Shown: piece by piece, positions 12,629 to 51,834 of the stretch
How positions within the stretch are numbered: the stretch's first letter is position 1
Layout: the number at the start of each line of letters is the position of its first letter
Assembly (NCBI RefSeq): GCF_902713615.1
Contig: NW_024055458.1
Coordinates: 1 to 64,000, forward strand
Source: Scyliorhinus canicula
Taxonomy: Eukaryota
Direction: 5' to 3'
DNA length: 64,000 nucleotides
Position numbers and translations under genes: made by a program
Notes under the pieces: generated by a model
The model's input: only the letters and a program-made list of their open reading frames with translations
Database searches by the model: none
What the model was told of the DNA's origin: nothing

Positions 12629-12632
12629 AAGC

Positions 12633-13577
12633 TGTTGCACGTTTTGCTATGGGCGTAAAACGCGTTTATTGGGGTGTATTAACTTCCAAGTGCTTAACAC
12701 CACTAGGCTCTGTCTTATGTATTTATTCAGCTTTAGGAGTCGCCAGTTGCCGTATAGACAACGTCACTAGTATTCCAAGGTCAAGTTCAAAGTAATAAAG
12801 ACGATACACCGATTAGTAAGGTCCAAACGATAATATTTATTATACAGTTATAATAAGTATTCATGCACACACTAAGAGACTAAGCTATGACTAAACTAAA
12901 GTAATCAGAATACTTATCTAACAGGAACAGCCAAGGTCAGGGAGCGAGGCCTTCGTCCTGGTCTTGGGCTGCAACCTTCAGCAAGCGTTCTGGTCACTGG
13001 GGGTTCTAGCGGGCTTAGTTCGCGTAGCGAGCGTCGTACTGGCACTTACGGTTCGGCGGCTGGTGCTCGACGGCTGGAGTCAGAGTGGATCTTCAAGTTC
13101 TTGGTCAGGGCCGGAGCACGGAATAACAGACCGGACAACACGAGGTCCCTATCTTTTATAGGGGTTCCATTGTCCTTCCCTCTTCTCGGGCGGGCTCTAC
13201 CTATTGGATCAATTTCTTATCGATACTGGATTAATTCCCCAATGCGAGGGGGTCTCCGTGATGGAGGGGGCGTTTCTTATGCCCTTTTGTTTGGAGGTTT
13301 CTGGTGCCTCGATGTCTGGGCCTTGATTAGAATGTGTCCATTCAGAACCAAATGTATCTATTGTGTGGGTGTTCAAGTCTGATCGCGTCATTAGCATGCA
13401 AAGCGTTTTGCCATTTGCACCTAGTTAAGGTCTTCTCACCTGAGCCCAAACTGGTTTCTGCTGCTGCAGAATGCAAACTGCTCTTTGCAGACTGCTGTTC
13501 TGGCTAAACTGTCTGTTTCCCAGCAGTCTTAGCGCTTGACCTATTTTGTAGCTCAGCATCCATTTTAGGTGGCTACA
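12633..13577 (-). repeat. 3' LTR
   Basis: TG...CA ends; TATAAAA at 13160-13154 with CCAAT about 45 nt upstream; several AATAAA (e.g. 12841-12836, 12670-12665). Confidence 0.97.
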
Positions 13578-13944: not shown

Positions 13945-14286
13945 TTATTCATCATGGGGCAGAGGGGATTGATGAAATCGGAAAATCGGAGATCGAACTC
14001 CATAGACGGAAGGGCAAGAACGGGAGGCTCTCCTCTTCCACTTCCTCAACCTGAGGGTCTGTACAAGGATAACGAGGATCGCAATCACCAGTAGTGATTC
14101 GATTACGTATGACATGGAGTACCATGTCATAAATTTAGTGCACCAGGTCTGAACCTCACTGATCAGAGCTGAGCACTGGGGAGTGGTTGTAAGGGAAACA
14201 TTTACGGTGGGGGTTGTGGGGGAAACGTGTCTTGTTTCCACACAAACAAATACAACAGTTAACAACAGTAGGTGAGCTTCCATCAT
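13945..14286 (-). CDS. 113-aa predicted type I membrane protein in the env position
   Basis: Hydrophobic N-terminus (aa 5-16), T/P-rich ectodomain with NVS sequon and two Cys, hydrophobic aa ~60-78, then RLRKWKRR; splice-acceptor-like site at 14385-14384. Confidence 0.7.
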   Translation of the reverse strand: MMEAHLLLLTVVFVCVETRHVSPTTPTVNVSLTTTPQCSALISEVQTWCTKFMTWYSMSYVIESLLVIAILVILVQTLRLRKWKRRASRSCPSVYGVRSPIFRFHQSPLPHDE

Positions 14287-15425
14287 CTTTATCTAGGTTT
14301 TCTTCTTTCTTCCTCCTGTATTGGACAATCCTTGCTTCGATCCCTGTCTCGACCTTCGAAAGCTATGGGATCAAGCACAGTATCTGTCAATACACAGTTT
14401 AAGATCTTTACTTGTTATTGCATCTGTCTTTTATATTCCGATTGACCCTTTAAAAATGACTGGCCAAGTCACTCCCTGTGACTCCCCTCATTTTTTCTTT
14501 TTCAAAAGCGAATTTGAAGACCAGAATACACCTAACAATCCTTCTCCTGCGAGCCGTCTTGCAGGCTTTGCTAGTTTACCATCCGAATGTTCCTGGATGT
14601 AAATAGCATGTGGGATGGCGGCCGAAGGGCTGCCTAACGAAAAATGAAAACAAAATTTTGAAAGAAACGTCCGAATGAGTTGCGTATGGGTCGCTACGGG
14701 TACGAGTTGGATGGGATCCCCGGGTAGGGCGTGCTGTGCCATACCCGAGCTTGGCTGACCAAAGTGGGTTCTCAGACAGGGCGGGTCCTCAGTGCCGTTT
14801 GTCCACTGCCTGAGTAACCTGGAGAAAACGGGTACGAATGTGGTTACCGTGACTTGCAGCCTCTATTCGCCGAATAGAGGGGCACCTAAAAACAATGGAG
14901 CCAAGATGCTCCGTTCTGAAAACAGGGCACAAGTCGTGAACCGTGTCGGTTCACCAGAGGATACAACTGAAGTTCTCAGATGTTTCGGCAGAGAAACTAT
15001 TGGGTGTGTAAGGCTGTCACAAGTCTTACAACTTTGAAAAGATATCCAATCAAACTGGGTGTTTGGAACCGAAGTTCTCAAAGGTTTCGGCAGAGAAACT
15101 ATTGTGTATGTGAGGTGGTCACAATCTTTTCAGCTGAAAAGAAGATGTCCATCCTCCAGCTGAACCATTTACATTCCTGAAACGAAACAAACATAAAACG
15201 ATAGACAAACATACGTGCAGGTTCCATCAGAAAGGACATCGTTTCCCTCAAACGATTCCTATTTTACATCATCTGGACACCTCACTTTTCCTCTGTCTCT
15301 GTGAACAGGGTCACAAAGGGGTTGCCGTGTCGGGAGTCAGACACCGTGTCGTTCTGCTCTCCCGGATCCCACACCCTTGTGTGGATCAGGCATGCTATTT
15401 TCGAATTGTGTGACCGGGGGTCACT

Positions 15426-17042
15426 TTAGTCATTTCGGACAAGTCTGTATGAATTGTCCCTGTGCCATAGTGTTGTGTCAAGTGTGTTGTCGGGGTAGTC
15501 GGGGTCGGGTGGTGGTTCTGGGTTTTTAAGGTAAGTGACTTCCATGGGGTCACTGGAGTCGGGGTCGTAGTTGGTGCAGTGTGGGCTGTATGGCTGTGTG
15601 CTGTCGCTGTCCTCAGAGTCAGTGTCTGTCCTGCTGTCTCTGCTGTGGCAGCTTGTGGGCGTTTCGGGGCGTGGTCTGTTGTGGTCTGTGGGCGGAGTCG
15701 TGGGCGAGTCCTTTGATAAACTGGTCTGTGAGGGGGATGGTGGAAAAGTGTCTCTAGTGGGCGGGGTGAAGTGTTCTGCTGCATCTAGCAGTACATGATG
15801 AGCATGGTTAGACTGTGTTCCATATGCCTTTAACTGGTTGATATGGAACCACGCGGTCTTCCCATTAGGATATTTTACCCTGTAAACTGAGGGGCTAATT
15901 TTATCCGAAATTGAGTATGGACCGGAATATTTTGGAGCCAAAAAACTGCTGGGGTTGTAAACAGATAACATTACCTGTTGCCCAACCTGGAATTCTGTGG
16001 GGTGTACGGTCTTATTAAAACAAGCTGTGCGTTGTTGACGGCGTTTTCCAAGCTGAACTGCGGCTGCAATCTGTGCAGACCTCACAGTCTCAACCAAGTC
16101 TTTAACCGTCTTTTCGTGTGTGAGGGCTGTCACCTCGGGGCTGGTCATGTCCAGTCCTAAAAGGAATTCTGTTGCTTTCATAGGGCGTCCGGTCATGAGT
16201 GTGTGTGGTGTGTAGCCTGTGGAAGTGGAAACAGTGTTCCTTATGAACATGAGTGCAAATGGGAGCACTGAATCCCATGTGGAGCTGTTCTCCTGAACCA
16301 TTTTTCTAAGGGTAGTTTTTAGAGTCCGATTCATGCGCTCCACAATCCCGCTGGACTGTGGATGATACGCAATATGGAAATTTTGTTTTATCCCAAATAT
16401 TGTCAGGACGTTCCTCATGACCCGCCCTGTAAAGTGAGATCCCTGGTCCGAATCGATACTTCGGGATAAACCCCATCTCGTGAAGATGTGGTGGGTCAGG
16501 ATCTTTGCAGCTGTCTTTGCAGTATTTGTTCTAGAGGGGAATGCCTCTACCCATTTGGTAAAGGTGTCGATGACCACCAGAACGTATTTATAGCCATTCC
16601 TGCAAGGGGGCAATGGTCCTATGAAATCGATCTGGAGGTTTGTCCAGGGGCCGTTTACTGGGCGAGTATGCCGAAGTTGTGCCTTCTTAGAATACCGCTC
16701 CGGGTTATTCTGTGCACAAATAAGGCAATTCTCTATATAATGTGTGACATCAGTCCTGAGATTAGGCCACCAACAGAGTTGCCTGAGGTGCCTCGTTGTT
16801 GCATCAATTCCCTGATGCCCGTGGTTATCATGGAATAAAGCAATCATTGCATTCCTGTCCTGCTGCGGGACCACATAAAGTTGTTCCTTAATGATCACAC
16901 CCTCATGTGTGGTCAGTGCGTTTTTAAATCTCTCGTACTCTGGCACAAAATTGCCTTTAAAAACCTCCCTGAGGTCCTTATCCTGCTTTTGTGCTGCTAC
17001 AAGATCTTTAATATCTGTCTGTGAGATATGGACTGCGCTCAC
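15426..17042 (-). CDS. pol: Integrase domain of pol (HHCC, DDE, GPY/F) with long low-complexity tail
   Basis: HDNHGH...CLIC; LQIDFIGP, IDSDQGSHF, YHPQSSGIVERMNRTLK; KYSGPY. Confidence 0.95.
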   Translation of the reverse strand: MSAVHISQTDIKDLVAAQKQDKDLREVFKGNFVPEYERFKNALTTHEGVIIKEQLYVVPQQDRNAMIALFHDNHGHQGIDATTRHLRQLCWWPNLRTDVTHYIENCLICAQNNPERYSKKAQLRHTRPVNGPWTNLQIDFIGPLPPCRNGYKYVLVVIDTFTKWVEAFPSRTNTAKTAAKILTHHIFTRWGLSRSIDSDQGSHFTGRVMRNVLTIFGIKQNFHIAYHPQSSGIVERMNRTLKTTLRKMVQENSSTWDSVLPFALMFIRNTVSTSTGYTPHTLMTGRPMKATEFLLGLDMTSPEVTALTHEKTVKDLVETVRSAQIAAAVQLGKRRQQRTACFNKTVHPTEFQVGQQVMLSVYNPSSFLAPKYSGPYSISDKISPSVYRVKYPNGKTAWFHINQLKAYGTQSNHAHHVLLDAAEHFTPPTRDTFPPSPSQTSLSKDSPTTPPTDHNRPRPETPTSCHSRDSRTDTDSEDSDSTQPYSPHCTNYDPDSSDPMEVTYLKNPEPPPDPDYPDNTLDTTLWHRDNSYRLVRND

Positions 17043-17061
17043 AGGGGCGCTAGCTGGTGCG

Positions 17062-19509
17062 CTAGCTGGGGGGGGTCCATAAGTGTCCTCGCCTGGAACC
17101 TGCCTTAGCCAGTGCGTCGGCTTTTACATTCCCAGGGGGGGATGACCTATGGTGACTTCTTACTTTTATTATGCCGAAGGTCCTGTCCTTCGCTTTTCCT
17201 AAAATATGCCGGAGTAGAGGGGCTGATGGAAGGGGTTTCCCGTCTGCGGAGACAAAACCTCGTGTCCTCCACAGGGGTAGAAAATCGGTCAAACTGTTAC
17301 AGACATATAAGCTGTCTGAATATATGTCTGCTGGGCTGGGGAAAGAAGCGGCGTGGTCCACTATATACGCTATGGCCGCGAGCTCTGCTGCCTGCGCGCC
17401 TAAGTGACCTGGTAACTTAAGAGCGATTTCTTCGAGAGCGCGCCCCTGCGCGTCCTCTACATAGATGCCGCATCCTGTGATACGCTCACCATTTAAAACT
17501 GTGGAGGAACCGTCTACATAAATCCTCAAGGGTCCACACGTGTCTGTGGGTTGGGGGCTTTGTTTTGGGTTCCCTATCTTCCTGGGGGGTGTTTTTGCTA
17601 TAAAGGGTCCTGTGTTATGCAGGGGAGCTACAATTTCACAGTCATGGGGCTGTCCTGGGTATTGGAGGTTGTCTGCTAAATATGTGTGTGTGCGGGTCCG
17701 TTTTACTGTAATGTCCCGTCCTTGTAAAAGTAGTGTCCATCTAGCTACCCTAATCTGGCTAACTGAACCGTCCTTCAGCCGACCGTCTAGGAGTAGCTGT
17801 GTGGGTGTGTGTTCGGTCAGAATAGTAATGGGGTTGAGTCCGGTGATGTATGAGAAATACTGCACTGCCCAGAAGACAGCAAGGAGGTGCCTCTCACAGG
17901 CAGAGAATCCTTGTTCTACCGGGTCTAACAGTCGGGAGGCATAAGCCACTGGCCTTAGCTGCTCGTGCCGTTCCTGAAGCAACACGGCCGAGAGGGTCAG
18001 ATCGGTGCTCGCTACCTCTATTGCATAGGGTGAAAGTTGGTCTGGGACTAGCAGCGCGGGTGCTGCACCAAGGGCTCGTTTTAACTCCTCCACAGCGCCT
18101 GTATGCTGCGGAAGCCATTCCCAGGGGGCTCCTTTCTTAAGGAGGTCTGAGAGTGGGGCGGCTTTTGTCGCGAATCCGTCGATGTGGTTCCGACAATAAC
18201 CAACCAGTCCTAAAAACGACCGGAGGGCTGATACATTCTGGGGAAGGGGCAATTTGACAATCGAATCAATTCTCTTGAATTCGATCTCGCGTTTGCCGTG
18301 TGTGATGATTGTTCCCAAATACATCACTTTAGTTTCCAAAATCTGGGCCTTTCTTGGGTTAACTTTACATCCAATTGAAGTCAACAGTTCCAGGAGTTCG
18401 GCCAGAAGCGTAATGTGCTCTGCCTTTGTGTCTGTCTGCAGTAGTAGGTCGTCTACATACTGTACCAGACATTCGGGGCGGGAGAATTTCTCTAAACCAC
18501 TTGCCAACTGTCGGTGGAAAATGGAGGGGGAATTGTGGAATCCTTGTGGAAGGCATGTCCACGTATACTGCTGTGTTTTAAAAGTGAAGGCAAATTTGTA
18601 CTGGCACGCTTTTGCCAATGGTATTGACCAGAATCCGTTACTGATGTCCAATACCGTGAAGTATTTGGAGTTGAGTCCCTGTTTGAGCATGGTCTCGGGA
18701 CTAGTAGCTACCGTTGGGGCTACTGCGGGAGTGACTTTGTTGAGTTCCCGATAATCGATGGTCAGACGCCATGATCCATCGGGCTTCCTCACTGGCCAAA
18801 TAGGGGCATTATTGGTCGAGGCTACCGATCTGAGCACACCTTGCTCCAATAAGCTTTCTATCACCTTTTCTATTTCCACCTCTGCTTCCAGGGGAAATCT
18901 ATACTGTTTCTGTGGTCGGGGGTCCTGTCCGGTAACGTGAACTGGTCCAGTCATTCTGCCACAGTCATGACGGTGACTTGCAAATGCTGTCCTGTGTTTG
19001 TTCAGTAGGGCTTTTATTTGTCTGTCGGTGTGGAGTGTAGTCAGGTCGAATGAGTACTCTCCCACTGCGCTAATCCGATTAGCGTAGTCTCCTACTGTGA
19101 GGGTGGCTGGTGCTCTGTCTGATCTAGCCATTCGCCAGACACACTGGTTCACTGGGTCGAACGACAAGCTATGAGCGTTCATAAAGTCTATCCCCAGGAT
19201 GTGTTCTGCTGTCCGGGGAAGATTTACTAGAACTACGGAGTGCTTGGTTGTGATGTTCCCTAGCTGGATCGCTACGGGTGCTGTGATGTGTCCCTGCTGC
19301 GAGTGTCCGGTGAACCCGCTAAGTGTAATGGTGGAGGTGGTCGGCCACGTGTCTGCGTGTGCCGTGATGGTAGAGTTAATGGTGGTGCGGGAGCCTCCTG
19401 TGTCCCACAGTAACTCTATGGGCTTCCCTTTTACTCTGGCTGTGACTACGGGTCTCCCTGATGAGTCCCATAGTGTGTCACAGACCCAAGTGGGGGAGCC
19501 CGAACACCG
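17062..19509 (-). CDS. pol: Protease-RT-tether-RNase H part of pol, in frame with gag after a single TGA
   Basis: 109 open codons (19509-19183) with LLWDTGGS and HILGIDF (aspartic protease). RT motifs LDISNGFW, PQGFHNSP and YVDD (18459-18448). RNase H motifs IYVDGSS, AQAAELAAI, IYSDS and GNVKADALAK. Confidence 0.95.
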   Translation of the reverse strand, partial: RCSGSPTWVCDTLWDSSGRPVVTARVKGKPIELLWDTGGSRTTINSTITAHADTWPTTSTITLSGFTGHSQQGHITAPVAIQLGNITTKHSVVLVNLPRTAEHILGIDFMNAHSLSFDPVNQCVWRMARSDRAPATLTVGDYANRISAVGEYSFDLTTLHTDRQIKALLNKHRTAFASHRHDCGRMTGPVHVTGQDPRPQKQYRFPLEAEVEIEKVIESLLEQGVLRSVASTNNAPIWPVRKPDGSWRLTIDYRELNKVTPAVAPTVATSPETMLKQGLNSKYFTVLDISNGFWSIPLAKACQYKFAFTFKTQQYTWTCLPQGFHNSPSIFHRQLASGLEKFSRPECLVQYVDDLLLQTDTKAEHITLLAELLELLTSIGCKVNPRKAQILETKVMYLGTIITHGKREIEFKRIDSIVKLPLPQNVSALRSFLGLVGYCRNHIDGFATKAAPLSDLLKKGAPWEWLPQHTGAVEELKRALGAAPALLVPDQLSPYAIEVASTDLTLSAVLLQERHEQLRPVAYASRLLDPVEQGFSACERHLLAVFWAVQYFSYITGLNPITILTEHTPTQLLLDGRLKDGSVSQIRVARWTLLLQGRDITVKRTRTHTYLADNLQYPGQPHDCEIVAPLHNTGPFIAKTPPRKIGNPKQSPQPTDTCGPLRIYVDGSSTVLNGERITGCGIYVEDAQGRALEEIALKLPGHLGAQAAELAAIAYIVDHAASFPSPADIYSDSLYVCNSLTDFLPLWRTRGFVSADGKPLPSAPLLRHILGKAKDRTFGIIKVRSHHRSSPPGNVKADALAKAGSRRGHLWTPPS

Positions 19510-21258
19510 TCAGTTCGTCTCGTCCACATTGGTGGGTCCTGACTGTACTGCTACATTGTGGATGGGTTTTGCCTTACTGCGGTTCAGAGTGCCTGTCTGC
19601 TGGCCTCTCTGAGATCGCTGGGGTGCATTGCATTCTTTTGCCCAATGCCCTAACTGTCCACAGTTATAGCATTCCTGGCCTTTCTGTTGTGGGCTGCTCT
19701 TCCCTTCATTTACCCATGCGGGTTTCTGATGCTCTCTCACTGCCTGAATATCTGCTGCAGCCTGAGCCTCTTCTGGGGATTGAACCTTACTCTTTGCCTG
19801 AATTGATTGCTCCCAAGCGCGGGACAACCTTTTCAGGACCCATTTCTCATTATGGGCCTCTTCTGAGGGGTCATAATTGTTGCAAGCGCTCTGCCCTGCC
19901 TCTGTTGCGTGTGAGATTAGGGTGCGCGTCCATTTGACCATATTTTCCCGGTTCAAATGCGCTCTATTTAACTCGCCGAAAACTGCGTTGAAATGAATCC
20001 ACAGCCTTCCTGCGAATGCTGTGGGGTGTTCGGATCTTTTCTGCCGGCACTTATTAAGTCCTTCTACGGGGTCACCTCGATTATACCCTATGGCATCTAA
20101 AATGGAGGTGTGCATCTCTTCTAGGGTGCCTCCGGCAACGTTCTGTGGGTCGGGGAGGGCTGCTACTACTGATTGGTCTAAGCTCAGAACTGTGAGCTTA
20201 ACCTGCTCTCTCTCATCCAGGCCGTACATGGTAGCCTGCTGTTTTACTTTAGCGAAGAACTGGTGGGGGTCTGCGGTGGGGAGGAACGGAGTGATCTTCT
20301 CACATGCGTCCCTGAGCTGGGTTACAGTTAAGGGGGTGGTGTAGGTTATATCTGGTGCGCCTTCTGTTATAGCTTTTCTCTGCGTGGTTACGGGGTTCAT
20401 GGGTGCGGATATGATCTGATCTGTGGGGGGTGGGGGTGCCTGCCTTTTCTGTTGCGCGGCTGGCGCACATGTTCCCTGAACATATCGCTGCGCTGTTTCC
20501 CTTAATTCTTGCCAATCTGGGGCATTTTCTCCATCTAACTGGGTTCCAAAGGTGCTTTGGAACCCGTTTTGCACCGAAAGCAGCGATTGCAGCTCTGCAA
20601 TCTGTTTCCTGCATTTCGCGTGATCCACAGTACTTTGCCTTTGCTCTGTGGTTGCAGCATGGAGTGCTCTCAAAGCTGCTTTGAGATCAGAGCATTGCCT
20701 CTGCAACGCCTCCACCTGCTTGTCTGATTCCTCTCTTATCAGAACGGCACTTTGCACGTCCTGATAAGCCTTTTCGTACTGGGTCTGGGAACTGCTGAGA
20801 TGGGCTAGACAAGACTGATGTGCCCTCTTGGCATCATCCACCTCTCTACCTTTCTCTATCAACTTCCCTCTTAGATCCAGATTCTCTTTCTCAATGTCCC
20901 TGACATCGACCTTACTCATGCGGTTCCTTTCCTCTAATTCTGCCCGGAGCGTCCTGACGACCTCCTCTGTGCCTCGCAATTGTGCCAAACAGGACACAAT
21001 CGCCATCGGCTTACGTGCTTTACTGAGGGTCTTTTTGTGAATTTGAGAGAGGTTCTCCCACCAAGTATGTCCTATACTTCCGGGACCTGTCTCCTCATTC
21101 AAACAAAACTCTTTCCAAAGGGGCCATCCCTTTCCTTGTAAATATTTGCGGAGTTCCAGCTCCCACGTGGGACACTGGCCTACCCTGCTACTGCTGCTGG
21201 TCGCTGCGACCACAAACTTTTCTGGATCCATCAGACGTTCCATTGCCTGCATGGCCAT
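19510..21258 (-). CDS. gag: Gag (582 aa) with long coiled coil and one CCHC zinc knuckle
   Basis: AAAATGGCC start; CYNCGQLGHWAKEC at 19671-19630; position 5' of pro/pol. Confidence 0.92.
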   Translation of the reverse strand: MAMQAMERLMDPEKFVVAATSSSSRVGQCPTWELELRKYLQGKGWPLWKEFCLNEETGPGSIGHTWWENLSQIHKKTLSKARKPMAIVSCLAQLRGTEEVVRTLRAELEERNRMSKVDVRDIEKENLDLRGKLIEKGREVDDAKRAHQSCLAHLSSSQTQYEKAYQDVQSAVLIREESDKQVEALQRQCSDLKAALRALHAATTEQRQSTVDHAKCRKQIAELQSLLSVQNGFQSTFGTQLDGENAPDWQELRETAQRYVQGTCAPAAQQKRQAPPPPTDQIISAPMNPVTTQRKAITEGAPDITYTTPLTVTQLRDACEKITPFLPTADPHQFFAKVKQQATMYGLDEREQVKLTVLSLDQSVVAALPDPQNVAGGTLEEMHTSILDAIGYNRGDPVEGLNKCRQKRSEHPTAFAGRLWIHFNAVFGELNRAHLNRENMVKWTRTLISHATEAGQSACNNYDPSEEAHNEKWVLKRLSRAWEQSIQAKSKVQSPEEAQAAADIQAVREHQKPAWVNEGKSSPQQKGQECYNCGQLGHWAKECNAPQRSQRGQQTGTLNRSKAKPIHNVAVQSGPTNVDETN

Positions 21259-21568
21259 TTTCTCTGACTCTCTTTTAGTTAATTTGGAACAGGGGGTTGC
21301 TGGGGTTGTGTTTCAAGAAACGGGTACGGCTTACACTATGTTCCGTTCACAAAACTACCGAATGTTTGTCGCAACAAAAATGCTTTCAGTTTTACCTTAC
21401 AGCCCTGTTAGTACGCATGCACTAAAACACACTTCCGAATTACGCTTATTAGTTTGAACACCTTGAATACTCGTGATTTTCTTTACTTTCTTACTTTCTC
21501 TGTAATTTGGAGTTCTAATTCAAATTTCAGGGTCCTGGACGGTGTGGGGTTTCCACTTACAACCGTGT

Positions 21569-21586
21569 CCCGTCAGGAAGTCGCCA
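21569..21586 (-). other. Primer-binding-site-like sequence TGGCGACTTCCTGACGGG
   Basis: TGG-starting motif 5 nt after the CA end of the 5' LTR; cognate tRNA not resolved. Confidence 0.6.
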
Positions 21587-21591: not shown

Positions 21592-22536
21592 TGTTGCACG
21601 TTTTGCTATGGGCGTAAAACGCGTTTATTGGGGTGTATTAACTTCCAAGTGCTTAACACCACTAGGCTCTGTCTTATGTATTTATTCAGCTTTAGGAGTC
21701 GCCAGTTGCCGTATAGACAACGTCACTAGTATTCCAAGGTCAAGTTCAAAGTAATAAAGACGATACACCGATTAGTAAGGTCCAAACGATAATATTTATT
21801 ATACAGTTATAATAAATATTCATGCACACACTAAGAGACTAAGCTATGACTAAACTAAAGTAATCAGAATACTTATCTAACAGGAACAGGCAAGGTCAGG
21901 GAGCGAGTCCTTCGTCCTGGTCTTGGGCTGCAACCTTCAGCAAGCGTTCTGGTCACTGGGGGTTCTAGCGGGCTTAGTTCGCGTAGCGAGCGTCGTACTG
22001 GCACTTACGGTTCGGCCGCTGGTGCTCGACGGCTGGAGTCAGAGTGGATCTTCAAGTTCTTGGTCAGGGCCGGAGCACGGAATAACAGACCGGACAACAC
22101 GAGGTCCCTATCTTTTATAGGGGTTCCATTGTCCTTCCCTCTTCTCGGGCGGGCTCTACCTATTGGATCAATTTCTTATCGATACTGGATTAATTCCCCA
22201 ATGCGAGGGGGTCTCCGTGATGGAGGGGGCGTTTCTTATGCCCTTTTGTTTGGAGGTTTCTGGTGCCTCGATGTCTGGGCCTTGATTAGAATGTGTCCAT
22301 TCAGAACCAAATGTATCTATTGTGTGGGTGTTCAAGTCTGATCGGCTCATTAGCATGCAAAGCGTTTTGCCATTTGCACCTAGTTAAGGTCTTCTCACCT
22401 GAGCCCAAACTGGTTTCTGCTGCTGCAGAATGCAAACTGCTCTTTGCAGACTGCTGTTCTGGCTAAACTGTCTGTTTCCCAGCAGTCTTAGCGCTTGACC
22501 TATTTTGTAGCTCAGCATCCATTTTAGGTGGCTACA
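21592..22536 (-). repeat. 5' LTR
   Basis: 945 bp, about 6 substitutions relative to the 3' LTR; TATAAAA at 22119-22113. Confidence 0.97.
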
Positions 22537-22540
22537 AAGC

Positions 22541-25620: not shown

Positions 25621-27121
25621 AAGGTCATTGAATGCTTCAACTTCATTTTAGCGTAAATCAGATTCGATCCATTTAGTTGGAAGCCAACGATGTGAGTTCG
25701 GGCTGAGAGACCTGGTTTAGCTTAGTGGGCTAGACAGCTGGTTAGTGATGCAGAACAAGACCAGCAGCGCAGGTTCATATTCCCGTTCCAGCTTACCTAA
25801 ACGAGGCGCCGGAATGTGGCGACTCGGAGCTTTTCACAGTAAAATTGTTATTAGTGTTGGCCACATGTCGATTAAAGACAATGACCCATCGTGGAGAGAC
25901 ATGCGATAAACCAGTTATGAGAAAGGCACAGAGAGAGATAGGATACAGGAAAATTCTACTAACTCACTTGGCATGTCCTTATATTTAGAGATTGGAGGGA
26001 ATCATTCCTAATTATGAACATGGGTAGCATAATGACATTTTTCTCATATAACCGATGAATAAAAAAATGTCGAAAAACAAACGTTTTTCAAAAAACAAAC
26101 GAATCCGTTGATCTGTTTGCAATTTTGGCTCTATTTCTGTGCTGTGTTGGTGGGGAAACATTTGTTTTGCTTTTCTCAGTCCGCAATCTAATCTGGAACT
26201 TCTATTTCTGAGTTTATTTACATAAAAACCTCACTGGTCACAATGAAATGTTCATGTCAGCAAAACGAGATAAACACAGTCACTTATTGATTAGTTTCAA
26301 CTGAAAATAGCGGTTTATTTTAAGAATATTGACAGTTGGTTAAATGAATAGAACAGATGTTACTTAATTGAAATAAAACATACTTTAAATTAAGTATTCA
26401 TTCTGAAAGTTCTGATACCTCAATTAATAATGCATCTTTAACCAGCTACATTTCCACTGAATGTTAAATTGACTGAAATATTAACCGATTTAAAGTAAAT
26501 AAATTGAAACATCAGGATTGATCTGTAGTCACATCAATCTCAGATCTTGCGAAATATTATAACTTGCATTTAAAATGTTAACATTTGGAAAGAGCTTGCT
26601 TTTGTAAAACGCTTTACCCGACCTCAGGTCACCCCAACGCCCTTAAAACTCACTGATATATTTTTGCTGAATTTAGTCTCTGCTCTAATGTTGGAAACAG
26701 AGCAGGGAATTTGTGCACAGCAAGCTCCCACAAACTGAGATGTGATAAGTGACCAGCTAATCTGTGATTTTAGATGAAGAACGGACATTGGTCCAAGATA
26801 CAGGGAAAAACAGCTCTGCTCTTTAGAATTATAACAATGAGGTAATCCACCTGAAATGTGAATCTGTTTCTCTCTCTGCTGATGCTCACTGACCTGCTGA
26901 GCAGCCTTTTTTGTTGGTTTTGTTTTAGATTTCCAGAACCTGCAGCACTTTGCACAGCTTTGGATTCATTCCCGCCACATAGCCATCAGTGACAAAGTCA
27001 GCATTAACTGTCCATCGGGATGGACAAGTGAACCACCTGTTTAATAAGGTGCACTTCGAGCGATTTTATTGACATTTGACTTTCTGCAGCATGACTTGCT
27101 TGCTCGGCAATATCAGAGATA

Positions 27122-27322
27122 GTTCTTTTTAAATTAAAATTAATATCCAATTCATTTTTTCCAATTAAGGGGCAATTTAACGTGGCCAATCCACCTAACC
27201 TGCACATCTTTGGGTTGTGGGGGTGAAACCCACGCAGACACGGGGAGAATGGCCGGGATTCAGAAGCCGGGTCCTCAGCGCCGTAGGCAGCAATGCTAAC
27301 CACTGTGCCACCGTGCCGCCCT
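27122..27322 (-). mobile_element. Short V-SINE-like SINE with A/T-rich tail
   Basis: Reverse complement of GGGCGGCACGGTGGCACAGTGG...GGATTGGCCACGTTAAATTGCCCC; similar copies at 31490-31715, 34183-34408, 35725-35895 and 50650-50855. Confidence 0.85.
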
Positions 27323-29609
27323 TATCAGAGATAGTTAACAGTCAACCTCTTCATTGCTGAACTAGAGTCACATATGGGCCAGACAGAGTAAGGAAGGAAG
27401 CTTTCTTCTCCTGAAGGACGTTGCTGAACCTGCTGGGCATTGCGAAAGTTCGATAGCTTCATAAGTATTATAAATGACACGTCGATTTTTTTTCCTGATT
27501 GATTAAGTCATTCAATTGAAAGTATCTACAGCTGCCATAAAACCATAAGATCTAGGAGCAGAAATTGGCCATTCGGCCCATGGAATCTGATCTGCCATTC
27601 AATGAGTTCGTGGCAAATCTGGTAAAATCCTCAACTCCACATTTCCACGTCATCCCCATAACCCTTGATTCCCTTACTGATGAAAAATCTGTCTGTCTGA
27701 GCCTTGAACATATTTATTGACCAGGCCAACTCTCTGTGGCAAAGAATTCTAGAGAATCACTACCCTCTGAGAGAAGAAATTCCTCCACATCCGCGTCTGA
27801 AATGAGTAGCACCTTACACTGAGATTGTGCCCTATGGTCCTAGACCCTCCCACAAGCCGAAACAACCTTTAACATCTACACTGTCAAGTGCCCTGAAAAC
27901 TATAAATCTCAGTAACTTCGCATCTCATTCTTCTAAACTCCAATGCGTGTAGTCCTAACCTACTTAGGCTCTCCTCATGTCAGTCTCTGTGGTGCAATTG
28001 GTCAGCGTGTTTGGCTGTTTACCGAAAGGTCTGTGATTCAAGGCCGGATTCTTCTTTATTTGCTGACAGAGTACTGATTGGCCGAAGAGCCTCTGTCTGT
28101 GCTGTGAAATGCTACCTACCTTTGAAAATCCCTCCATACTCGGGAATAACCTAAAAAGCCTTCTCAGGATTGCCCCCAAATATCTATCCTTACATAAGGA
28201 GACCAAAACCGTTCACAGCATTGCAATCTGCCCTGGTGGAATTTGAACTCCTGTGTCTGGAGTGTTCAGGCCTCCAGGTTACCAGTTTTGTAATAATCTT
28301 GCGAAACTACCCCTAAGACTGAAACAATCGCATCTCAACGATGGAACAACTGAACATAACACGCTCCTCCTGCATTGGATCACAGGTCTGGATCATGGGC
28401 TCAGGTATCTGTTGTGGGAGGTGATATGGATTCCACTGAGACAAGACTGCTAACCTATCATGGTTTGTATTTTGACATTCTGACATATTGCTCAGTGTAT
28501 CTAAAGTTCAAACTCTGGGTCCAGTCTTACTTGGGTCAATTTAATTTTCAGAGGCTGGTCTTTTATTCGTCTTGGTCTTATTCGGACACAATGGTAATGG
28601 TGAATGGGAATTCCACTGGATCCGTATAAAATATCAGTTACTCCAAAAATAGCATCTAAATGCAAGCAAGGCAGAAACATATGTACAACCTGATCTTCTC
28701 ACTGCATCAGCTGCACGGTTAGAGCGGTTGGAAGCTGGGATTGTTTTCCTTATAACCCAGCAGGTTATGGGAAGGCCTGGTGAAAATGGTCAAAATCGGA
28801 ATGGTTTTGTTTGATTAGTTAGGAAGAAACTTAATTCACTGGAAGAAGGGTCAGAAAACAGAGAACACTGATTAATGAGATATTAATTCATTTTCCGCTC
28901 TGATTATAAACCGATCAAATTGCAACAGGACTAGACAGGGTGGATGCAGAAAGGATGGTCCCGATGGCTGGCAAAGCTAGAACAAGGTGTCACAGTCTAA
29001 GGATACGGGGTCAACCATTTAGGACTGAGATGAGGAGCAATGTCTTCACCCTGAGATTTGTGAATCTGTGAATTCTATACAACAGAACGAAGTTGAGTCC
29101 AAAGTATTCTATGTTTTCAAGAAGGCGTTAGATAAAGCTCTTGGGGATCAAAGCTATAAAGGGACCAAATGACAGGGGGGAAAGTGGAAATAGGTTACTG
29201 ATGTGGATGACCAACCATGATCAGAATGAATAGCGGAGCAGGGACAGAATGGTTTACTCCTGCTCTATTTTCTATGTCACTGTATTACGTCAAATCTGTT
29301 TCTTCTCAAGTTGAATGAGACTCTGCCTTTATTATATTAAAGTAAATCCTGTCCCTGTCTATACTACACTGTCCACTCAATTATATTACACCTAAACCAT
29401 GGCATATATATTAATTACATTAAGTTCCACCTCTTTATATCTTCCACTGGAATGGTGTCTCTTTAACATACACACCAGGGCCTGTCTCGGTTAATATTAT
29501 ACCGAACCATGTTCCTGTTGTCTGTCGCGATATTATAGAATTATTTTATATATTTGCTTGTTGTCATGACTCGTGGTGTTCCGCCGGGACGCAGTGGTGG
29601 GACCTTGAT

Positions 29610-30382
29610 CTTGGTAGTATATATAATTACTTGACAGGAAACATGTAAGCTGATCTGATTAGTAAGTTGACGGGAGGGCGACACAAAGGTTGGTAGGGCG
29701 AAAGAGAAAATGTTGGAAAATCTCAGCAGGTCTGGCAGCATCTGTAGGGAGAGAAAAGTGCTGACGTTTCGAGTCCAATGACTCTCTCGCACACAAAGGT
29801 TGGTGGAATTGCAGATAGCGATGAGGACTGTCAGAGGACATAGCAGGATTTAGATCGTTTGGAGACTTGGGTGGAGAGATGGCAGATGGAGTTTAATCCG
29901 GACAAATGTGAGGTCATGCATTATGAAAGGTTTAATACAGGTGGAAAATATACAGTGAATGGTAGAACCCTCAAGAGTATTGACAGTCAGAGAGACCTAG
30001 GTGTACACGTCCACAGGTCACTGAAAGGGGCAATATTGGTGGAGAAGGCAGTCAAGAAGGCATACGGCATGCTTGCCTTCATTGGTCGGAGAATAGTGCT
30101 TAAAAATTGGCAAGTCATGTTGCAGATGTATAGAACCTTAGTTAGGCCACACTTGGAGTATAGTGTTCAATTCTGGTCGCCACACTACCAGAAGGATGTG
30201 GAGGCGTTTGAGAGTGTGCAGAAGAGGTTTACCGGAATGTTGCCTGGTATGGAGGGCATTAGCTACGAGAAGAGGTTGAATAAACTTGGTTTGTTCTCAC
30301 TGGAACGACGGAGGTTGAGCGGCTACCTGATAGAGGTCTACAAAATTATGAGGAGCATAGGCAGAGTGGATCGTCAGAACCT
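29610..30382 (+). mobile_element. CR1 LINE fragment carrying a 96-bp insertion
   Basis: ORF 29859-30401 has WQMEFNPDKCEVMH, RDLGV and LVRPHLEYSVQFWSPHYQKDV. Confidence 0.9.
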
Positions 30383-31741
30383 GATGCACTGGCAGTGTTA
30401 GACAGAACCGTGTCTCACAGTATCACCAGATTGGCACCCACAGGATAAATGTCTGGACAATCATAGAGCTCCCATCTGGTTAAGGAGAGCAATTGAAATC
30501 ACTGCAAAAACGTATTGACCGTTCGTGTCGGTGTGGAAAAAACATTGTTCAAAATGTTTGCAACTGTAATCAATCAAGACGTAATGCTATCTTCGGAATT
30601 AATTGTTTCACTTTGCCATGTCTTCATGCGTCTCGGCCCTAAGCTCTGGTACGCATTCCACACTCCTCTTTACCTCAATTCCCTTCATAAAAATCATCCC
30701 ATATAACTTGCCTCATCGACCAAGCTTTCAATCATCTGACCTAATAACTCTTTAGACATATATTAATCCAGACCCTGCAGCAGGAATGACCGAAATAGAC
30801 CCTACCTCAGTTTAGACTATTCCAGACTCTGAATCAATGGTCACTGCTCGACATCCTATATCATTTAAGGTGAATCAAACTTTGTATCAGTAATTTCCGC
30901 ACTAGAACCTGTCTCCGTTTATGTTAGTGTGGACTCTGTATCAGTAATCACTGCACTAGATCCAATCTCAGTGGCACTGTTGCTTCACAGCGCCGTGGTC
31001 CCAGGTTTGATTCCTGACTTGGGTCACTGTGCGGAGTCTGCACGTTCTCCCTGTGTTCTGTGTGGGTTTCCTCCTGGTGTTATGGTTTCCTCCCACGTGC
31101 CCCGAATGACGTGCTGTTAGGTAACTTTGACTTTCTGAGTTCTCCCTCTGTGTACCCGAACAGGCGCCTGAATCCTGCGACGAGTAGCTTTTGACAGTAG
31201 CTTAATTGCAGTGTTAATGTAAGCCTACTTGTGGCAATAAAGGTTTTTGGATTAGTTTAGGTTAATCTCCACCCTGTATGAGTGATAATCGTTTTAGACC
31301 TTGTCATAGAGCCATGGAGTCTTAGAGGTTTACAATACAGAATGACGCCCTTCCATCCATCGTATCGGCGATGGCAATCAAGCACCTATCTATTCTAAGA
31401 TCGTCCACAGATGGTCTTCGTACCATAAAACCATAAGACACATGAGCAGAACTAGACCATTAGGCCCATCGAGTGTGCTCCTCATTCAATCATTTTTAAA
31501 AATAAATTTAGAGTCAGCAATTCATTTTTTCCAATGAAGGGGCAACTTAGTGTGGCCAATCCACCTACCCTGCACATCTTTTGGGTTGTGGCGGCGAAAC
31601 CCGCGCAAACACGGGGAGAATGTGCAAACTCCACACGGACAGTGACCCAGGGACAGGATCGACCTCGGCACTGTGAGGCAGCTATGCTAGCCACTGCGCC
31701 ACTGCGCTGCCCCTCCTTATTCAATCATGACTGTTATTGAA

Positions 31742-31921
31742 ATTGAAAAATTGAAAATCGCTTATTGTCACGAGTCGGATTCAATGAAGTTACTGTGAAA
31801 AGCCCCTAGTCGCCACATTCCGGCGCCTGTCCGGGGAGGCTGGTACGGGAATCGAACCGTGCTGCTGGCCTGCTTGGTCTGCTTTAAAAGCGATTTAGCC
31901 GAGTGAGCTAAACCAGCCCCT
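31742..31921 (-). mobile_element. Second tRNA-derived SINE family with (ATTTC)n-type tail
   Basis: Reverse complement of GGGCTGGTTTAGCTCAC...GGTTCGATTCCCGTACC...GTGACAATAAGCGATTTTCA; plus-strand copies at 55078-55275 and 62336-62504. Confidence 0.85.
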
Positions 31922-34900
31922 TATTTTTTTCCAGTTATGTTTCTAATCGCCCATCTCCTGTTATCTCCCCATAACCCCTGATCCCCTTATTAATCAAGAA
32001 ACTATCTATGTCTGTCAGACTGGTTAGATATAGGGAAAGATCCTTCGGCACTGCCACATCAAATCCTCACCACTCTGTGCAGCTCAGGTTAGATACAGAG
32101 TAAAATTTTCTCTACAGTTCTCATGAAACACTACAAGGTAATTGAATGCTCCAACCACATTTGAGAAGAAAACTCTCTCTATGTATTCCAATTCATTGGA
32201 TTCGATCCATTTAGTTGGAAGCCAATGGGGTGTGATCGGGCTGAGAGAATATATTGGGCACATGTTGACTTCAATTTGTCGATTACAAACAATGACCCAT
32301 CATGGAGAGGCATGAGACAGAACCAATTGGGAGAAAGACACAGATATCAGATACATGAAAACTCTACGAACACATTTGGCATGTCATAATATTCGAGATT
32401 AAAGGGAAACTTTCCTCATTCTGAACATAGATATCATGATGACATTTTTCTCATATAACTGATGAAGAAACACATGTCCAAAAACAATTACTACTTGAAT
32501 CCGTTAATCTATTTACATCTTCATCTCTATTTCTGTGCTGTGTCGGCGGGGAAATAGTTGTTTTGTTTTTGTCAGCCTGCAATCTAAACTGGGCCTTCTA
32601 TTTCTGTGTTTATTTACATAAACACCTCACTGGCACAATGTCAGCAAAACGAGATAAACACAGCCACTTATTGATTAGTTTCAACTCAAAATAGCCGGTT
32701 ATTTTAAGACTATTAACAGTCTATTAAAATGTATAGAACCCTCCATTAGAACAGATGTTACTTAATTGAATTAAAGAATACAGTTGAATTAAGTATTAAT
32801 TCTGAAAGTTCTGATGTCTCAATTAATAAAGCATCTTTAACCAGGCTGTTATTCCACTGAATGCTAATTTGATTGAAATATTAACCGATTTAAAGTAGAT
32901 AAATTAAAACATCAGGCAGGGGAGTGACCGATAGTCACATTAATCTCAGATCTTTCAAAATCTTACAACCTGCATTTTAAAATGTTAGCATTTGGAAAGA
33001 GCTTGCTTTTGTGAAACGCTTTACCGACCTCAGGTCATCCCAACGCCCTGAAAACTCACTGATATATTTTTGCTGAATTTAGTCACTGCTGTAATGTTGG
33101 AAACATAGCAGGGAATTTGTGCACAGCAAGATCCCACAGCCTGAAATGTGATCAGTGACCAACCAATCTGTGATTTATGTTCAAGAACGGACATTGGTCC
33201 AGGATACTGGGAAAATCAGCTCTACTCTTTAGAATTATGTCAATGAGGCAATCCACTAGAAATGTGAATCTGTTTCTCTCTCTGCTGATGCTCACTGACC
33301 TGCTGAGCAGCCTTTATTATTTTGTTTTTGTTTTAGATTTCCGGATTCTGCAGCACTTTGCACTATTTTTAACATTCATTCCCGGCCTATGACCCTCACT
33401 GACAAAGTCAGCATTAACTGTCCATCCTGTGAAGCCGGATGAGAACCACCTTTTAGATAAGGTGCACTTTGCACAGTTGAATTCACATTTGACTTTATGT
33501 AGCAGATTCTCTTCGACTGACTGGCTTGCTCGGTAATATCAGAGGTAGTTAAGCGGCAACCACATCATTGCTGAACTAGTTACATATAGTCCAGACAGGG
33601 GATGGCGGGAAGATTTATTTTCCTGAAGGACATTGGTGAACCTGCTGAGCTTTGGGAAATGTCAAGAGCTTCATGAGCATTATGAATGACATGACGATTT
33701 TTATTGCTGATTTATTAATTCATTCAATTATAAAACTATAAGATGTAGGAGCAGAAGTTGGCCATTCGACCCATGTACCTTCTCTGGACGGCCTCCAAAA
33801 TATCTATCCTTAGGTAAGGAGACCAAAACTGCTCACATCATTGCAATATGCCCTGGTGGAATTTGTACTGCCTCTGGAGTAATAGTTCAGGCCTCCAGAT
33901 TGCCAGTCCAGTAATAATATTGCGAAGCAGCCCTAAGGCTGTAATAAAATCACATCTAAAAGATGGAACAACTGAAATATAAAATACTCCTGCATTGGAT
34001 CACAGGCTGTCGTGAGAGGTGATATTGATTCGCATGAAACAAGACCTATCATGCTTTGCATTTTGACATTACATTCTGAAATATTGCTCAGTGTATCTAA
34101 AGTTCTAATTCTGGGTGCAGCCTTACATGGGTCAATTTAATTTTCAGAGGCTAGTCTTTTATTAGTCTTGTGACTTATTCTTTTATAAATTTAGAGTACC
34201 CAATTATTTTTTCCTAATTAAGGGGTAATTTAGCATGGCCAATCCACCTACGCTGCACATCTTTGGGTTGTGGGAGCGAAACCCACGCAAACACGGGGAG
34301 AATGTGCAAACTCCACACGCCCAGGGACCCAAAGCCGGGATCCAACCTGGGACCTCAGCGCCGTGAGGCAGCAGTGCTAACAACTGCACCACCGTGCTGC
34401 CCCCGTCTTACATCTTGTTCTAACACGATGGTATTGGTCAATGGGAATTCCACTGGCTCCATATAAAATGTCAGTAATTCCAAGAATAGCATCTGAACAC
34501 AAGCAAGGCATAAAAACATATACAACTGGGTCTTCACACTGTATGAGCTGCACGGTCAGAGCGGTTGGAAGTTCGGATTGTTTTCCTCAGAACCGAGCAG
34601 GTTATGGGATGCGTGTAAAAATTGTCAAAATTATGATGGGTTTTGTTTGATTAATTAGGAAGAAACTTGATTGACTGGCAGGAGGGTCAGAAAACAGAAG
34701 ACACTAATTTATGAAATATTAAATCCACCCTCTGATTATAAGCCAATCAAATTGTAACAGGACGAGACAGGGCGGATGCAGAAAGGATGTGTCCGATGGC
34801 GGGAAAGGTAGAACCAGGTGTCACAGTCTAAGGATACGGGGTAAACCATTTAAAACGGAGATAAGGAGTAATACCTTCACCCTGGGAGTTGTGAACCTGT

Positions 34901-36208
34901 GGAATTCTCTACCATAGAGCGAAGTTGACTCCAAAGTATTGTATGTTTTCGAGGAGGAGTTAGATAAAGCTCTTGGGGATCAAAACTCTGGAGGGACCAA
35001 ATGATATGGGGGAAAGTGGGAACAGGTTATTTAGGTGGATGGTCAGCCATGATCAGAATGAATAGCGGAGCATCTCGAAGGACAGAATGGTCTACTCCTG
35101 CTCTATTTTCTATGCACTGTATTACATCAAAACTGTTTATTCTCATGTTACACGTGACCCTGTCTTTATTGCTATTAAAGTAATCCCTGTCCCTGTCTAT
35201 ACTACACTACCGTTTGTGCTACACTCAGTTAATAATACGCTACAATATGCATAGGATTATATTACATTAAGTTCCGTCTCTACTATATTCCACAGGAATT
35301 TGTTTCTTTACATCACACCAGGGCCTGTCTCTGTTGATATTACACCGGACCATGTTCCTGTTGTCACTCGATATTACAAATTATTGTACATGTTTGCTTG
35401 TTTCTCCAAGTACAATCATCATTGATTTTGAGATTATGTTAATTCCTGTTAATATCTATAAGTAGTTGTATTAGATGTGTACTTGCTCTGCTATCATGTG
35501 GGCAATACTGAGTTGAATATTTTACCAACATCCCAGGAATGAACTGGTCTTGGGAGACATGTCTACATGTGAACACCGGTGCACAGCAATTTCCAAAATT
35601 TAGAGGAAATCTCTGTTTTGTTCAAAATTATGAATTTACTTTTGTGTTATGCTCTATCGATTGGAAAGTTTTTTTTTCACGATGGTGATTATTTTCATGC
35701 CTCGATTTATATTAACCAATCAACTGTTCGAATCCCGGGCCCGGGTCACTGTCCGTGTGGATTTTGCACATTCTCCCCGTGTCTGCGTGGGTTTCACCCC
35801 CACAACCCAAAGACGTGCAGGGTAGGAGGATTGGCCACGCTAAATTGCCCCTTAACTGGAAAAAATAATTGGGTACTCTAAATTTATTTTAAAAATATAT
35901 TAACCCATCACCTAATGCACTGGCAGAGTTAGACAGAACCGTGTTCTCACAGTATCGCCACAATGGTAATGGTGGGCACTCATAGGAGAAATGCCCACCC
36001 AATCATACAACACTCATCTGGTTAAGAAGAACAACTAAAATCGCTGCAAAAACGTATTGACCGTTCGTGTAGGTGTGCATATGAAACATTTTTCTTATTT
36101 TTTGCAACTCCAATCGATCAAGATGTAATGTTATCTTCTGAATTATTTGGTTCACTTTTCGATGTCTTCATATGTCTCTGTCCTAAGCTCTGGTATTCAA
36201 TCCCTACA

Positions 36209-36603
36209 TGTTGAAGAAATTAATAGTCAGCACTTCGAGTTTTCGCCAAAGGTCTTTATTTAACACGAAGTTCGTGGGGGGATTAGATAGACCACAGTCA
36301 TTCCAAATGTCCCCGCTTTACAGAGATAAGGCAAGCAAGTTACAGTAAGCAATGTCTAGAACAGGCCTTGAGTTCCTCGCCTAAGAAAAAATAGTTGTCT
36401 GCTGTCAGCAAAACAGTGTGCAGCTGTATGCTTGTTTAAACTGACTGTTTCATACAGAACGTCTTGACGAAAAATAAGGCTAAATATCCATCATGCTTTG
36501 CCAAGTGCCTATTTCCATGAAATATAGTGAAGCAGCCAGTTAAAATGAATACAACTGATGTTGTATTCAGGCAACTAATCCGCAAACTAAAGTCCCTTCT
36601 ACA
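36209..36603 (-). mobile_element. Probable solo LTR (395 bp)
   Basis: Present only in duplication unit 2; TGTTGAAG...CTTCTACA termini (7/8 inverted match); CTACA/CTACT flanks; minus-strand AATAAA. Confidence 0.6.
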
Positions 36604-37066
36604 CTACTGTACTCCTCTTTACGTCAACTCCCTTATTAAAATCATCCCATAACCGGCCTCGTCGACCATGTTTTTACTCGTCTGGCCTATTAACTGTTTA
36701 CACATATATTAATCCAGACCCTGAGCAGGAATGACTGCAATAGGCCCTGCCTCAGTTTATAATATTCTAGATACTGTATGAATAATCACCGTTTTAGATG
36801 CTATCTCATTTAAGGTTAATCAAACTTTGTATCAGTAATCGCTGCACTACAACCTGTCTCGGTTTATGTTAATCTAGACCCTGTATCAGTCATCACTGCA
36901 CGAGATTCAATCTCAATTTAGGTTAATCTACACCCTGCATTAGTGATCATTGCTTTAGACCCTGTCATAGAGTCATGGAGTCTGAGAGTTTCACAGTATA
37001 GAAAGATGCCCTTCCACCCACCATATCTGTGACGGCAATCAAGCCGTCCATAGATGGTCTTCCTAC

Positions 37067-47112: not shown

Positions 47113-47482
47113 NNNNNNNNNNNNNNNNNNNNNNNNNNNNNNNNNNNNNNNNNNNNNNNNNNNNNNNNNNNNNNNNNNNNNNNNNNNNNNNNNNNNNNNN
47201 NNNNNNNNNNNNNNNNNNNNNNNNNNNNNNNNNNNNNNNNNNNNNNNNNNNNNNNNNNNNNNNNNNNNNNNNNNNNNNNNNNNNNNNNNNNNNNNNNNNN
47301 NNNNNNNNNNNNNNNNNNNNNNNNNNNNNNNNNNNNNNNNNNNNNNNNNNNNNNNNNNNNNNNNNNNNNNNNNNNNNNNNNNNNNNNNNNNNNNNNNNNN
47401 NNNNNNNNNNNNNNNNNNNNNNNNNNNNNNNNNNNNNNNNNNNNNNNNNNNNNNNNNNNNNNNNNNNNNNNNNNNNNNNNNN
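47113..47482. other. Assembly gap (370 N)
   Basis: Run of N. Confidence 1.
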
Positions 47483-51210: not shown

Positions 51211-51834
51211 CAGTCTCTGTTATTGATACATTGGAGCCGGTCTCTGTGATTATTATTATACCAGACCCCAGTCTGACCCCGGGCCCGGCAGTCTCTGTTA
51301 TTGATACACTGGAGCCGGTCTCTGTGATTATTATTATACCAGACCCCAGTCTGACCCCGGGCCCGGCAGTCTCTGTTATTGATACACTGGAGCCGGTCTC
51401 TGTGATTATTATTATACCTGACCCCAGTCTGACCCCGGGCCCGGCAGTCTGTGTTATTGATACACTGGAGCCGGTCTCTGTGATTATTATTATACCAGAC
51501 CCCAGTCTGACCCCGGACCCGGCAGTCTCTGTTATTGGTGCACTGGAGCCGGTCTCTGTGATTATTATTATACCAGACCCCAGTCTGACCCCGGGCCCGG
51601 CAGTCTCTGTTATTGATACACTGGAGCCGGTCTCTGTGATTATTATTATACCTGACCCCAGTCTGACCCCGGGCCCTGCAGTCTCTGTTATTGATACACT
51701 GGAGCCGGTCTCTGTGATTATTATTATACCAGACCGCAGTCTGACCCCGGGTCCGGCAGTCTCTGTTATTGATACACTGGAGCCGGTCTCTGTGATTATT
51801 ATTATACCAGACCCCAGTCTTCCCCGGGAACCGG
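51211..51834. repeat. 78-bp minisatellite, 8 copies
   Basis: Unit CAGTCTCTGTTATTGATACACTGGAGCCGGTCTCTGTGATTATTATTATACCAGACCCCAGTCTGACCCCGGGCCCGG starts at 51211, 51289 ... 51757. Confidence 0.97.

Follow-up and report, generated by a model that had tools for sequence, protein, structure and literature searches.

The window, meaning the whole 64,000-nucleotide stretch of Scyliorhinus canicula DNA analysed here, contains a 9.9 kb provirus on the minus strand with the order LTR-gag-pol-3' gene-LTR. The 5' LTR (21592..22536, minus strand) and the 3' LTR (12633..13577, minus strand) are 945 bp each and differ by 6 mismatches (99.4% alike), the element is bounded by a 4-bp target duplication (12629-12632 and 22537-22540), and the provirus is young. 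The 5' LTR holds a TATA box (22119-22113) and a conserved splice donor (GTAAGT, 22008-22003), and the 3' LTR holds the poly(A) signal AATAAA (12841-12836); a purine tract occupies 13587-13578. The primer binding site (PBS; 21567..21586, minus strand) is presumably that of tRNA-Arg, as in SnRV. The gag gene (19510..21258, minus strand) encodes 582 aa with one CCHC knuckle; Gag begins with M-A and has no Gly2, and none of the motifs PTAP, PPxY, and YPxL was found in the Gag of this provirus. The gag frame ends in a TGA that is in frame with pol. This single TGA, followed by CGG (19510-19512), is all that separates the two genes and suggests stop read-through, which has been proposed for XtERV-S, whose gag-pol TGA is also in frame (excerpts of PMC8278194). 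The pol region consists of a frame for protease, reverse transcriptase (RT), tether, and RNase H (17062..19509, minus strand) and an integrase frame with zinc finger, rve, and SH3 (15426..17123, minus strand), in the PR-RT-tether-RNase H-IN order of Retroviridae. The RT-RNase H and integrase frames differ at 17062-17123, and pol is broken in this copy; other copies differ in this respect.

Between the integrase and the splice acceptor of the 3' gene lies a conserved non-coding block (14520..14860, minus strand), which is 65-83% identical between subfamilies; no reading frame is common to them. Its conservation equals that of the 3' gene itself, RNA reads peak there, and the block is a candidate element for export or packaging; no unusual RNA fold was found in the window copy (z -0.9). 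The possibility of another small ORF within the block was dropped, as 56 loci have no common start or frame. Elsewhere in the window, a tandem array with a 78-bp period occupies 51055-51978, a diverged segmental duplication with a spacing of about 5.8-6.4 kb and pieces 83-90% identical extends over 26618-37000, and a run of 370 N lies at 47113-47482.

The provirus is filed as a member of a class III, SnRV-like ERV family, the closer position of which is left unfixed by a quick tree, and the family has thousands of copies in the genome. Its RT matches foamy virus and MLV enzymes at E of about 1e-70, compared with 1e-38 for Ty3, and is thus closer to retroviral enzymes than to those of Ty3/Gypsy. 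It also lies outside the gamma/epsilon group. The pol relatives in amphibians and the coelacanth are 41-58% identical and group with the provirus (SH-aLRT 92 in the quick tree), and a turtle ERV is also among the best relatives. Among the references compared, the RT motifs are nearest to SnRV; the two share motifs, but their identity is only 39% and no supported clade contains both. The RT motif SNGFWS occurs three times in alignments of the PMC7947760 supplement, each time in SnRV. Names of the "NYNRIN-like" type had provided a lead to Lokiretrovirus, which was rejected because in those alignments SNGFWS is confined to SnRV and the single Lokiretrovirus RT compared differs. PF00523, a feature of the Lokiretrovirus Env, had no match in a strict first look at the genome or in nine Env fragments, which are fragments only. 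The end of one frog pol relative (residues 1190-1331) is a signal-like stretch with a weak match to Ig-like domains (E 0.012) and may be an unusual 3' gene of its own. The family also includes pol-less derivatives with the structure LTR-gag-stub-LTR (L119, L120, L126, and L133; LTRs 96-99% identical), in all four of which the 3' frame is open. A similar gag-to-env junction without pol was observed at the locus L285.

The env slot of the provirus is occupied by a short ORF (13945..14286, minus strand) that runs from ATG to TAA and encodes 113 aa, hereafter the stub. Comparison of 20 aligned copies, 42-86% identical to that of the window, revealed a common layout: a hydrophobic N-terminus, an N-x-S sequon, a transmembrane (TM) segment, and five to six basic residues after it were found in all of them, and sizes across copies range from 113 to 120 aa. 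The predicted signal peptide (aa 1-18; 14233..14286, minus strand) has a hydrophobic core in every one of the 20 copies and was called from hydrophobicity and an A-x-A-like motif present in most subfamilies; it shows a weak, graded likeness to the N-termini of the longer relatives, the long form and Env, introduced below. It is followed by a T/P-rich stalk with the sequon at aa 29-31 (14194..14202, minus strand), in which N29 and S31 are invariant (20/20), and the mature ectodomain would comprise about 38 residues. An aromatic membrane-proximal helix (aa 48-60; 14107..14145, minus strand), assigned from the alignment and a structure model, matches a W-W-x-x-x-W stretch ahead of the TM helix in the long form and Env, its conservation being partly built in by the search patterns. 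The TM helix was placed at about aa 57-75 (14062..14118, minus strand), the best 19-residue hydrophobic window, and 6 of the next 12 residues are K or R. The polybasic patch (aa 79-86) and cytoplasmic tail (together 13948..14052, minus strand) include the conserved residues Y95 and P100-I101. A Glu near the start of the TM helix and a Tyr in the tail are invariant, Gly2 is absent from all 20 copies, and the model predicts one helix over aa 39-90. The frame of 113 codons, the hydrophobic N-terminus, N-V-S at 29-31, the TM segment, and the polybasic patch are thus as the earlier note had described them. The C38-C49 pair that it had also pointed out is not a family trait, since C38 varies and occurs only in window-like subfamilies.

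To trace the stub through the genome, we used degenerate patterns. A 9-codon pattern yielded 2730 genome matches compared with none for its reversed control, and three such patterns together yielded 2730, 315, and 1082 matches compared with 0, 0, and 2 for the controls. The ORF is full length in 27 of the best 29 sibling matches, a sample that favours intact copies; the other two carry one early stop and one frameshift. Among 85 pattern-fetched loci, 13 were duplicates and 6 lacked the motif, leaving 66. The frame is open in 38 of the 66; after removal of 4 with frame-shifted stretches inside and merging of identical rows, 34 sequences including that of the window remained. A codon model over these diverged copies gave an overall omega of 0.29-0.32, and the 94 codons outside the search-pattern region gave 0.35 (2dL 147 against omega = 1). 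The regional values were 0.45 for the signal peptide, 0.51 for the stalk, 0.22 for the TM helix and basic patch (aa 67-88), and 0.21 for the tail, with neutrality rejected for each. Pairwise dN/dS against the window copy was 0.13-0.33 in 8 of 10 pairs, and dS was saturated in the other 2. The stub is under purifying selection with the strongest constraint on its inner half, and is a constrained gene rather than dead debris. The sibling comparison, which the earlier note had proposed as a check, shows the ORF to be constrained, and a functional small membrane protein gains support from omega values of 0.2-0.5.

Analysis of the sequences around the stub indicated how it may be expressed. A GT(A/G)AGT donor in the R region of the LTR (22008-22003), about 110 nt after the conserved TATA box, is present in 11 of 12 aligned elements. 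Upstream of the ORF, a branch-point-like TRACAG (14389-14384, minus strand) that contains a first AG (14385-14384) is conserved in 64 of 67 loci, and a second AG 21 nt further on (14363..14364, minus strand; 62/67 loci) is the likely 3' splice site. Among the 38 open copies, splicing at the first AG would leave an upstream ATG in 16, and splicing at the second in 4. Public catshark gene models that end in the ORF, which are predictions and not reads, all lack the peptide encoded between the two AGs (11/11), and 5 of the 11 start exactly at the second AG (14364-14363). The TRACAG-type acceptor motif also lies upstream of one Env copy and of long-form copies. The earlier note had placed the donor at a GTAAGT just after the PBS (21560-21555) and the acceptor at the first AG. 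That GTAAGT exists, but in only 2 of 12 aligned elements as against 11 of 12 for the LTR donor; the first AG is present too, and in this copy no ATG lies between it and the start, but the gene models use the second. Both ends of its 21561-14383 splice are therefore probably wrong. In four RNA runs, 5453 raw reads lay on the element and may derive from any copy; 128 RNA reads whose loose ends are poly(T) fall at an LTR position that fits the poly(A) signal AATAAA. RNA depth on contigs was higher over the 3' part, which is a poor measure, and neither proposed splice junction was among the 15 of 18 read joints listed (four runs, both LTRs in the stretch). The stub is probably translated from a spliced RNA that joins the LTR donor at 22008 to the AG at 14363, as a glycosylated type I protein. 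A donor for env upstream of the PBS is likewise described for XtERV-S (excerpts of PMC8278194). Several catshark gene models, such as those of SUGCT, PTGER3, B3GAT1, CFAP36, and KIAA1958, end in a viral stub exon. Since host gene models end in this way, frequent exon trapping of host transcripts by intronic copies via the acceptor is suggested.

To elucidate the origin of the stub, we analysed loci of the family found by their integrase. An integrase pattern gave 3621 matches (control, 3), and the first 100 of these yielded 34 loci without a nearby stub motif in the earlier lists. A profile search found the gene in 22 of the 34, and the other 12 had neither the gene nor an Env core. In 2 of the 22, the ectodomain is longer, defining a long form of about 215-220 aa with an extra six-cysteine domain of about 100 residues; this domain has an omega of 0.51 (23 copies, 2dL 44). 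At two loci, the sequence beyond the six-cysteine domain continues as a long glycoprotein, and these loci pointed to an older Env family. First-look candidates, which are not copy numbers, amounted to 384 for Env, 571 for the long form, and 6193 for the stub. Open fragments of Env consist of a signal peptide, the six-cysteine domain, an R-x-K-R site with a hydrophobic peptide, and heptad-like segments, followed further C-terminally by a cysteine-rich core, a W-rich stretch, a TM segment, and a basic tail. The motif R-x-K-R-G-L-[VI] was found in 8 of 30 Env loci, with a variant in a ninth. From the match positions in a single locus, the length of Env is put at about 650 codons; none of the 30 copies retrieved is intact, their longest open frame having 335 codons. 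The parent was called Env from its position and motifs, and these (signal peptide, R-x-K-R with hydrophobic peptide, heptad-like segments, and TM segment) are the features of a class I fusion protein; the Env core had no significant match in Pfam, PHROGs, PDB, or Atlas, and the parent Env matched no Pfam family, TLV_coat included, and no solved structure. The six-cysteine domain, a candidate receptor-binding domain, had no significant match in Pfam, PHROGs, PDB, or Atlas, and its model has a mean pLDDT of 38.

Profile comparisons connect the three forms stepwise. The stub matches the long form (HMM E 5e-15, HH 99.4%) and the long form matches the Env C-terminus (E 2e-7, HH 96.6%), while the stub and Env match directly only below significance (HH 21%, HMM E above 5), so that the link between them needs the long form. 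The cysteine-rich domain was found in 30 of 30 long-form, 19 of 30 Env, and 0 of 20 stub loci, and the Env core profile in 30 of 30 Env and 0 of 30 long-form loci; one locus, L191, is intermediate between the classes. No furin site, fusion peptide, or heptad repeats were detected with the Env-core profile in the window element and 20 stub loci. Judged by these profiles, the stub is homologous to the two ends of the family's own Env, its derivation being indicated by the chain of matches together with the acceptor motif common to the three forms. The earlier note had listed an env remnant that kept only its signal peptide and TM segment among its readings and had asked whether any sibling carries a long env; the broken Env genes of about 650 codons and the form of about 215 aa in the same genome answer this and support the reading. 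Env families of the gamma/epsilon type (TLV_coat, 1386 candidates, loci L144-L173) coexist in the genome. They were rejected as a source of the stub, as they belong to other families and gave no stub match in the 30 of 78 scored loci that were examined.

The order of events was very likely Env (about 650 aa), long form (about 215 aa), and stub (113-120 aa). A first deletion would have removed the furin site, fusion peptide, and heptad core, and a second would have removed the cysteine-rich N-terminal domain. The integrases of the three size classes form one catshark clade, within which the unrooted tree, with only five Env loci retaining enough integrase, is a ladder of Env, long form, old stub, and young stub. 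The median terminal branches are 0.21, 0.15, 0.21, and 0.06, respectively. The best integrase trees do not place the root next to Env; a root on the Env side is not rejected (p-AU 0.28). The direction from long to short is nevertheless likely on parsimony, on the broken state of the Env copies, and on the Env of SnRV, which is required for spread (excerpts of PMC12193657).

Beyond the family, a single-sequence search restricted to proteins of 62-198 aa found no homologue even at an E of 10. Profile searches returned only Scyliorhinus gene models (seven proteins, and five among 1.84 billion), and nothing significant for the stub was found in Pfam, PHROGs, PDB, or Atlas (best Atlas score 0.89). 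We found no description of a stub-like envelope remnant among the open-access articles searched.

What the deletions left behind suggests a possible function. The parts kept would direct the protein into the secretory path and supply a short stalk with a glycan, an aromatic membrane-proximal helix, a TM helix, and a tail, whereas everything for receptor binding and class I fusion would have been removed and the inner, membrane side retained. We tentatively favour, while holding it somewhat short of even odds, the reading that the stub is a minimal membrane anchor for the budding or docking of Gag capsids and no receptor-binding fusion protein. Budding of foamy viruses depends on Env. In the catshark element, the tail and TM helix might recruit a Gag that has neither myristoylation nor a late-domain motif, and the aromatic helix might, like the engineered G-stem of VSV, perturb membranes; particles could then exit the producing cell or pass to an adjacent one, for instance a germ cell. 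We give this two-part route to exit or hand-over the same guarded preference. Since all four pol-less derivatives retain gag and an open stub, Gag and the stub are suggested to act together, to the benefit of their own RNA. Such an anchor is not obviously needed, because Env-less retroelements replicate without any stub (excerpts of PMC10536682).

Fusion by the stub itself is a less probable alternative. A stand-alone fusogen like the FAST and sORF2 proteins would open transient pores and let capsids move from the soma into the germ line, which PMC11952523 proposes for sORF2 of the Drosophila MDG1 group. The size, single TM segment, polybasic patch, amphipathic aromatic helix, and ectodomain of about 38 residues fit the layout given there, where some insect sORF2 genes also sit after pol; the G-stem can induce hemifusion (excerpts of PMC2823649), and strong selection and wide spread in the family fit as well. 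A length within about 60-200 aa, one TM segment, and a juxtamembrane polybasic patch are common to FAST proteins, sORF2, and all 20 stub copies. However, the stub has neither an N-terminal myristoylation motif (no Gly2, 20/20) nor a conserved cystine loop (C38 varies). The type III topology without a cleaved signal peptide is also not predicted, as a second, N-terminal hydrophobic segment is present in 20 of 20 copies and predicted to be a cleaved signal peptide; an invariant N-glycan site and deletion of the parent Env's fusion peptide speak further against such a fusogen, which we consider unlikely. The stub lies outside the FAST family and may work like the G-stem or like a FAST protein. 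A similarly low probability attaches to an accessory protein with a Vpu-like role, which would counter a membrane restriction factor or alter the trafficking of surface proteins via its TM helix and tail. The peak of constraint in exactly these parts, with the invariant Glu and Tyr, agrees with such a role, as do the small ORFs of complex SnRV-like viruses (excerpts of PMC12193657), but selection is purifying overall and not positive, and the stub has no known target and no likeness to any known accessory protein.

Two further explanations are less probable still. The frame might be kept solely for RNA reasons (acceptor, stability, or cis elements), with an inert protein; the 3' ORF of SnRV acts in cis with its protein nearly dispensable (excerpts of PMC12193657), and the nearby non-coding block is conserved like the ORF. 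Synonymous sites of the stub, however, saturate while its amino acids, its sequon, and the hydrophobicity of its signal-like and TM segments are kept, and omega largely refutes this explanation because RNA constraint lowers dS, not dN; we regard it as very unlikely. A captured host mini-receptor, as the earlier note had suggested, which might be a TMEM156-like decoy, scarcely deserves credence. Among weak Pfam matches, TMEM156 (PF15106) is indeed the most frequent, in 17 of 20 members (best E 0.0015), but the best score of 22.9 bits is under the cut-off of 27, and all matches are below the cut-off and confined to the TM helix and basic patch (mostly profile positions 170-220). The eight best TMEM156 matches in the genome are themselves stub copies, and the chain to the family's own Env accounts for both ends of the stub.

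Loss of Env in an ERV is usually taken as a sign of decay, after which the element is confined to its cell. In this family, the steps of shrinkage stayed under selection (omega 0.51 for the long-form domain and 0.35 for the stub) while the family expanded, which implies that the anchor and tail of Env do something besides mediating entry. With three size classes in one genome, this role can be tested with natural open genes. The series also illustrates concretely how a large viral fusion protein could give rise to small single-pass proteins of unknown origin, such as FAST and sORF2. We doubt that a preserved deletion series turned the class I envelope of a vertebrate retrovirus into a FAST-like mini-fusogen for direct transfer of capsids from cell to cell; if it did, the stub would be a vertebrate equivalent of the insect sORF2 and the first small transmembrane fusogen with a traceable origin.

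Several known systems share single traits with the catshark family. The env-less superspreader ERVs IAP and ERV-L and the gag-only Bhikhari elements of zebrafish resemble it in combining envelope loss with high copy number and pol-less derivatives, but the catshark family retains a selected env remnant, even in its pol-less copies. Fv4, Refrex-1, and suppressyn are functional env pieces that retain the receptor-binding part at single host loci, whereas the stub comes from the opposite end of Env and exists in thousands of mobile copies. XtERV-S resembles the provirus in its in-frame gag-pol TGA and its env donor upstream of the PBS (excerpts of PMC8278194). However, SnRV, XtERV-S, and lineage I of the elephant-shark CmiERV have full env genes, while env of the catshark family is cut to a 113-aa stub. 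The MDG1-group sORF2 and FAST proteins are, like the stub, small single-pass proteins with a polybasic patch, and sORF2 belongs to env-less retroelements (excerpts of PMC11952523 and PMC12945298); the stub differs in having no myristoylation motif, a predicted signal peptide, a probable expression by splicing, and an origin traceable to Env, that of sORF2 being open. The G-stem of VSV (the membrane-proximal 42 residues, TM segment, and tail), which is reported to aid assembly and potentiate fusion or hemifusion (excerpts of PMC2823649), represents the same cut of a viral glycoprotein as the stub. The G-stem, however, is a laboratory construct from a class III rhabdovirus protein with no homology to the stub, whereas the catshark cut arose and was kept in nature, together with a new T/P-rich glycosylated stalk.
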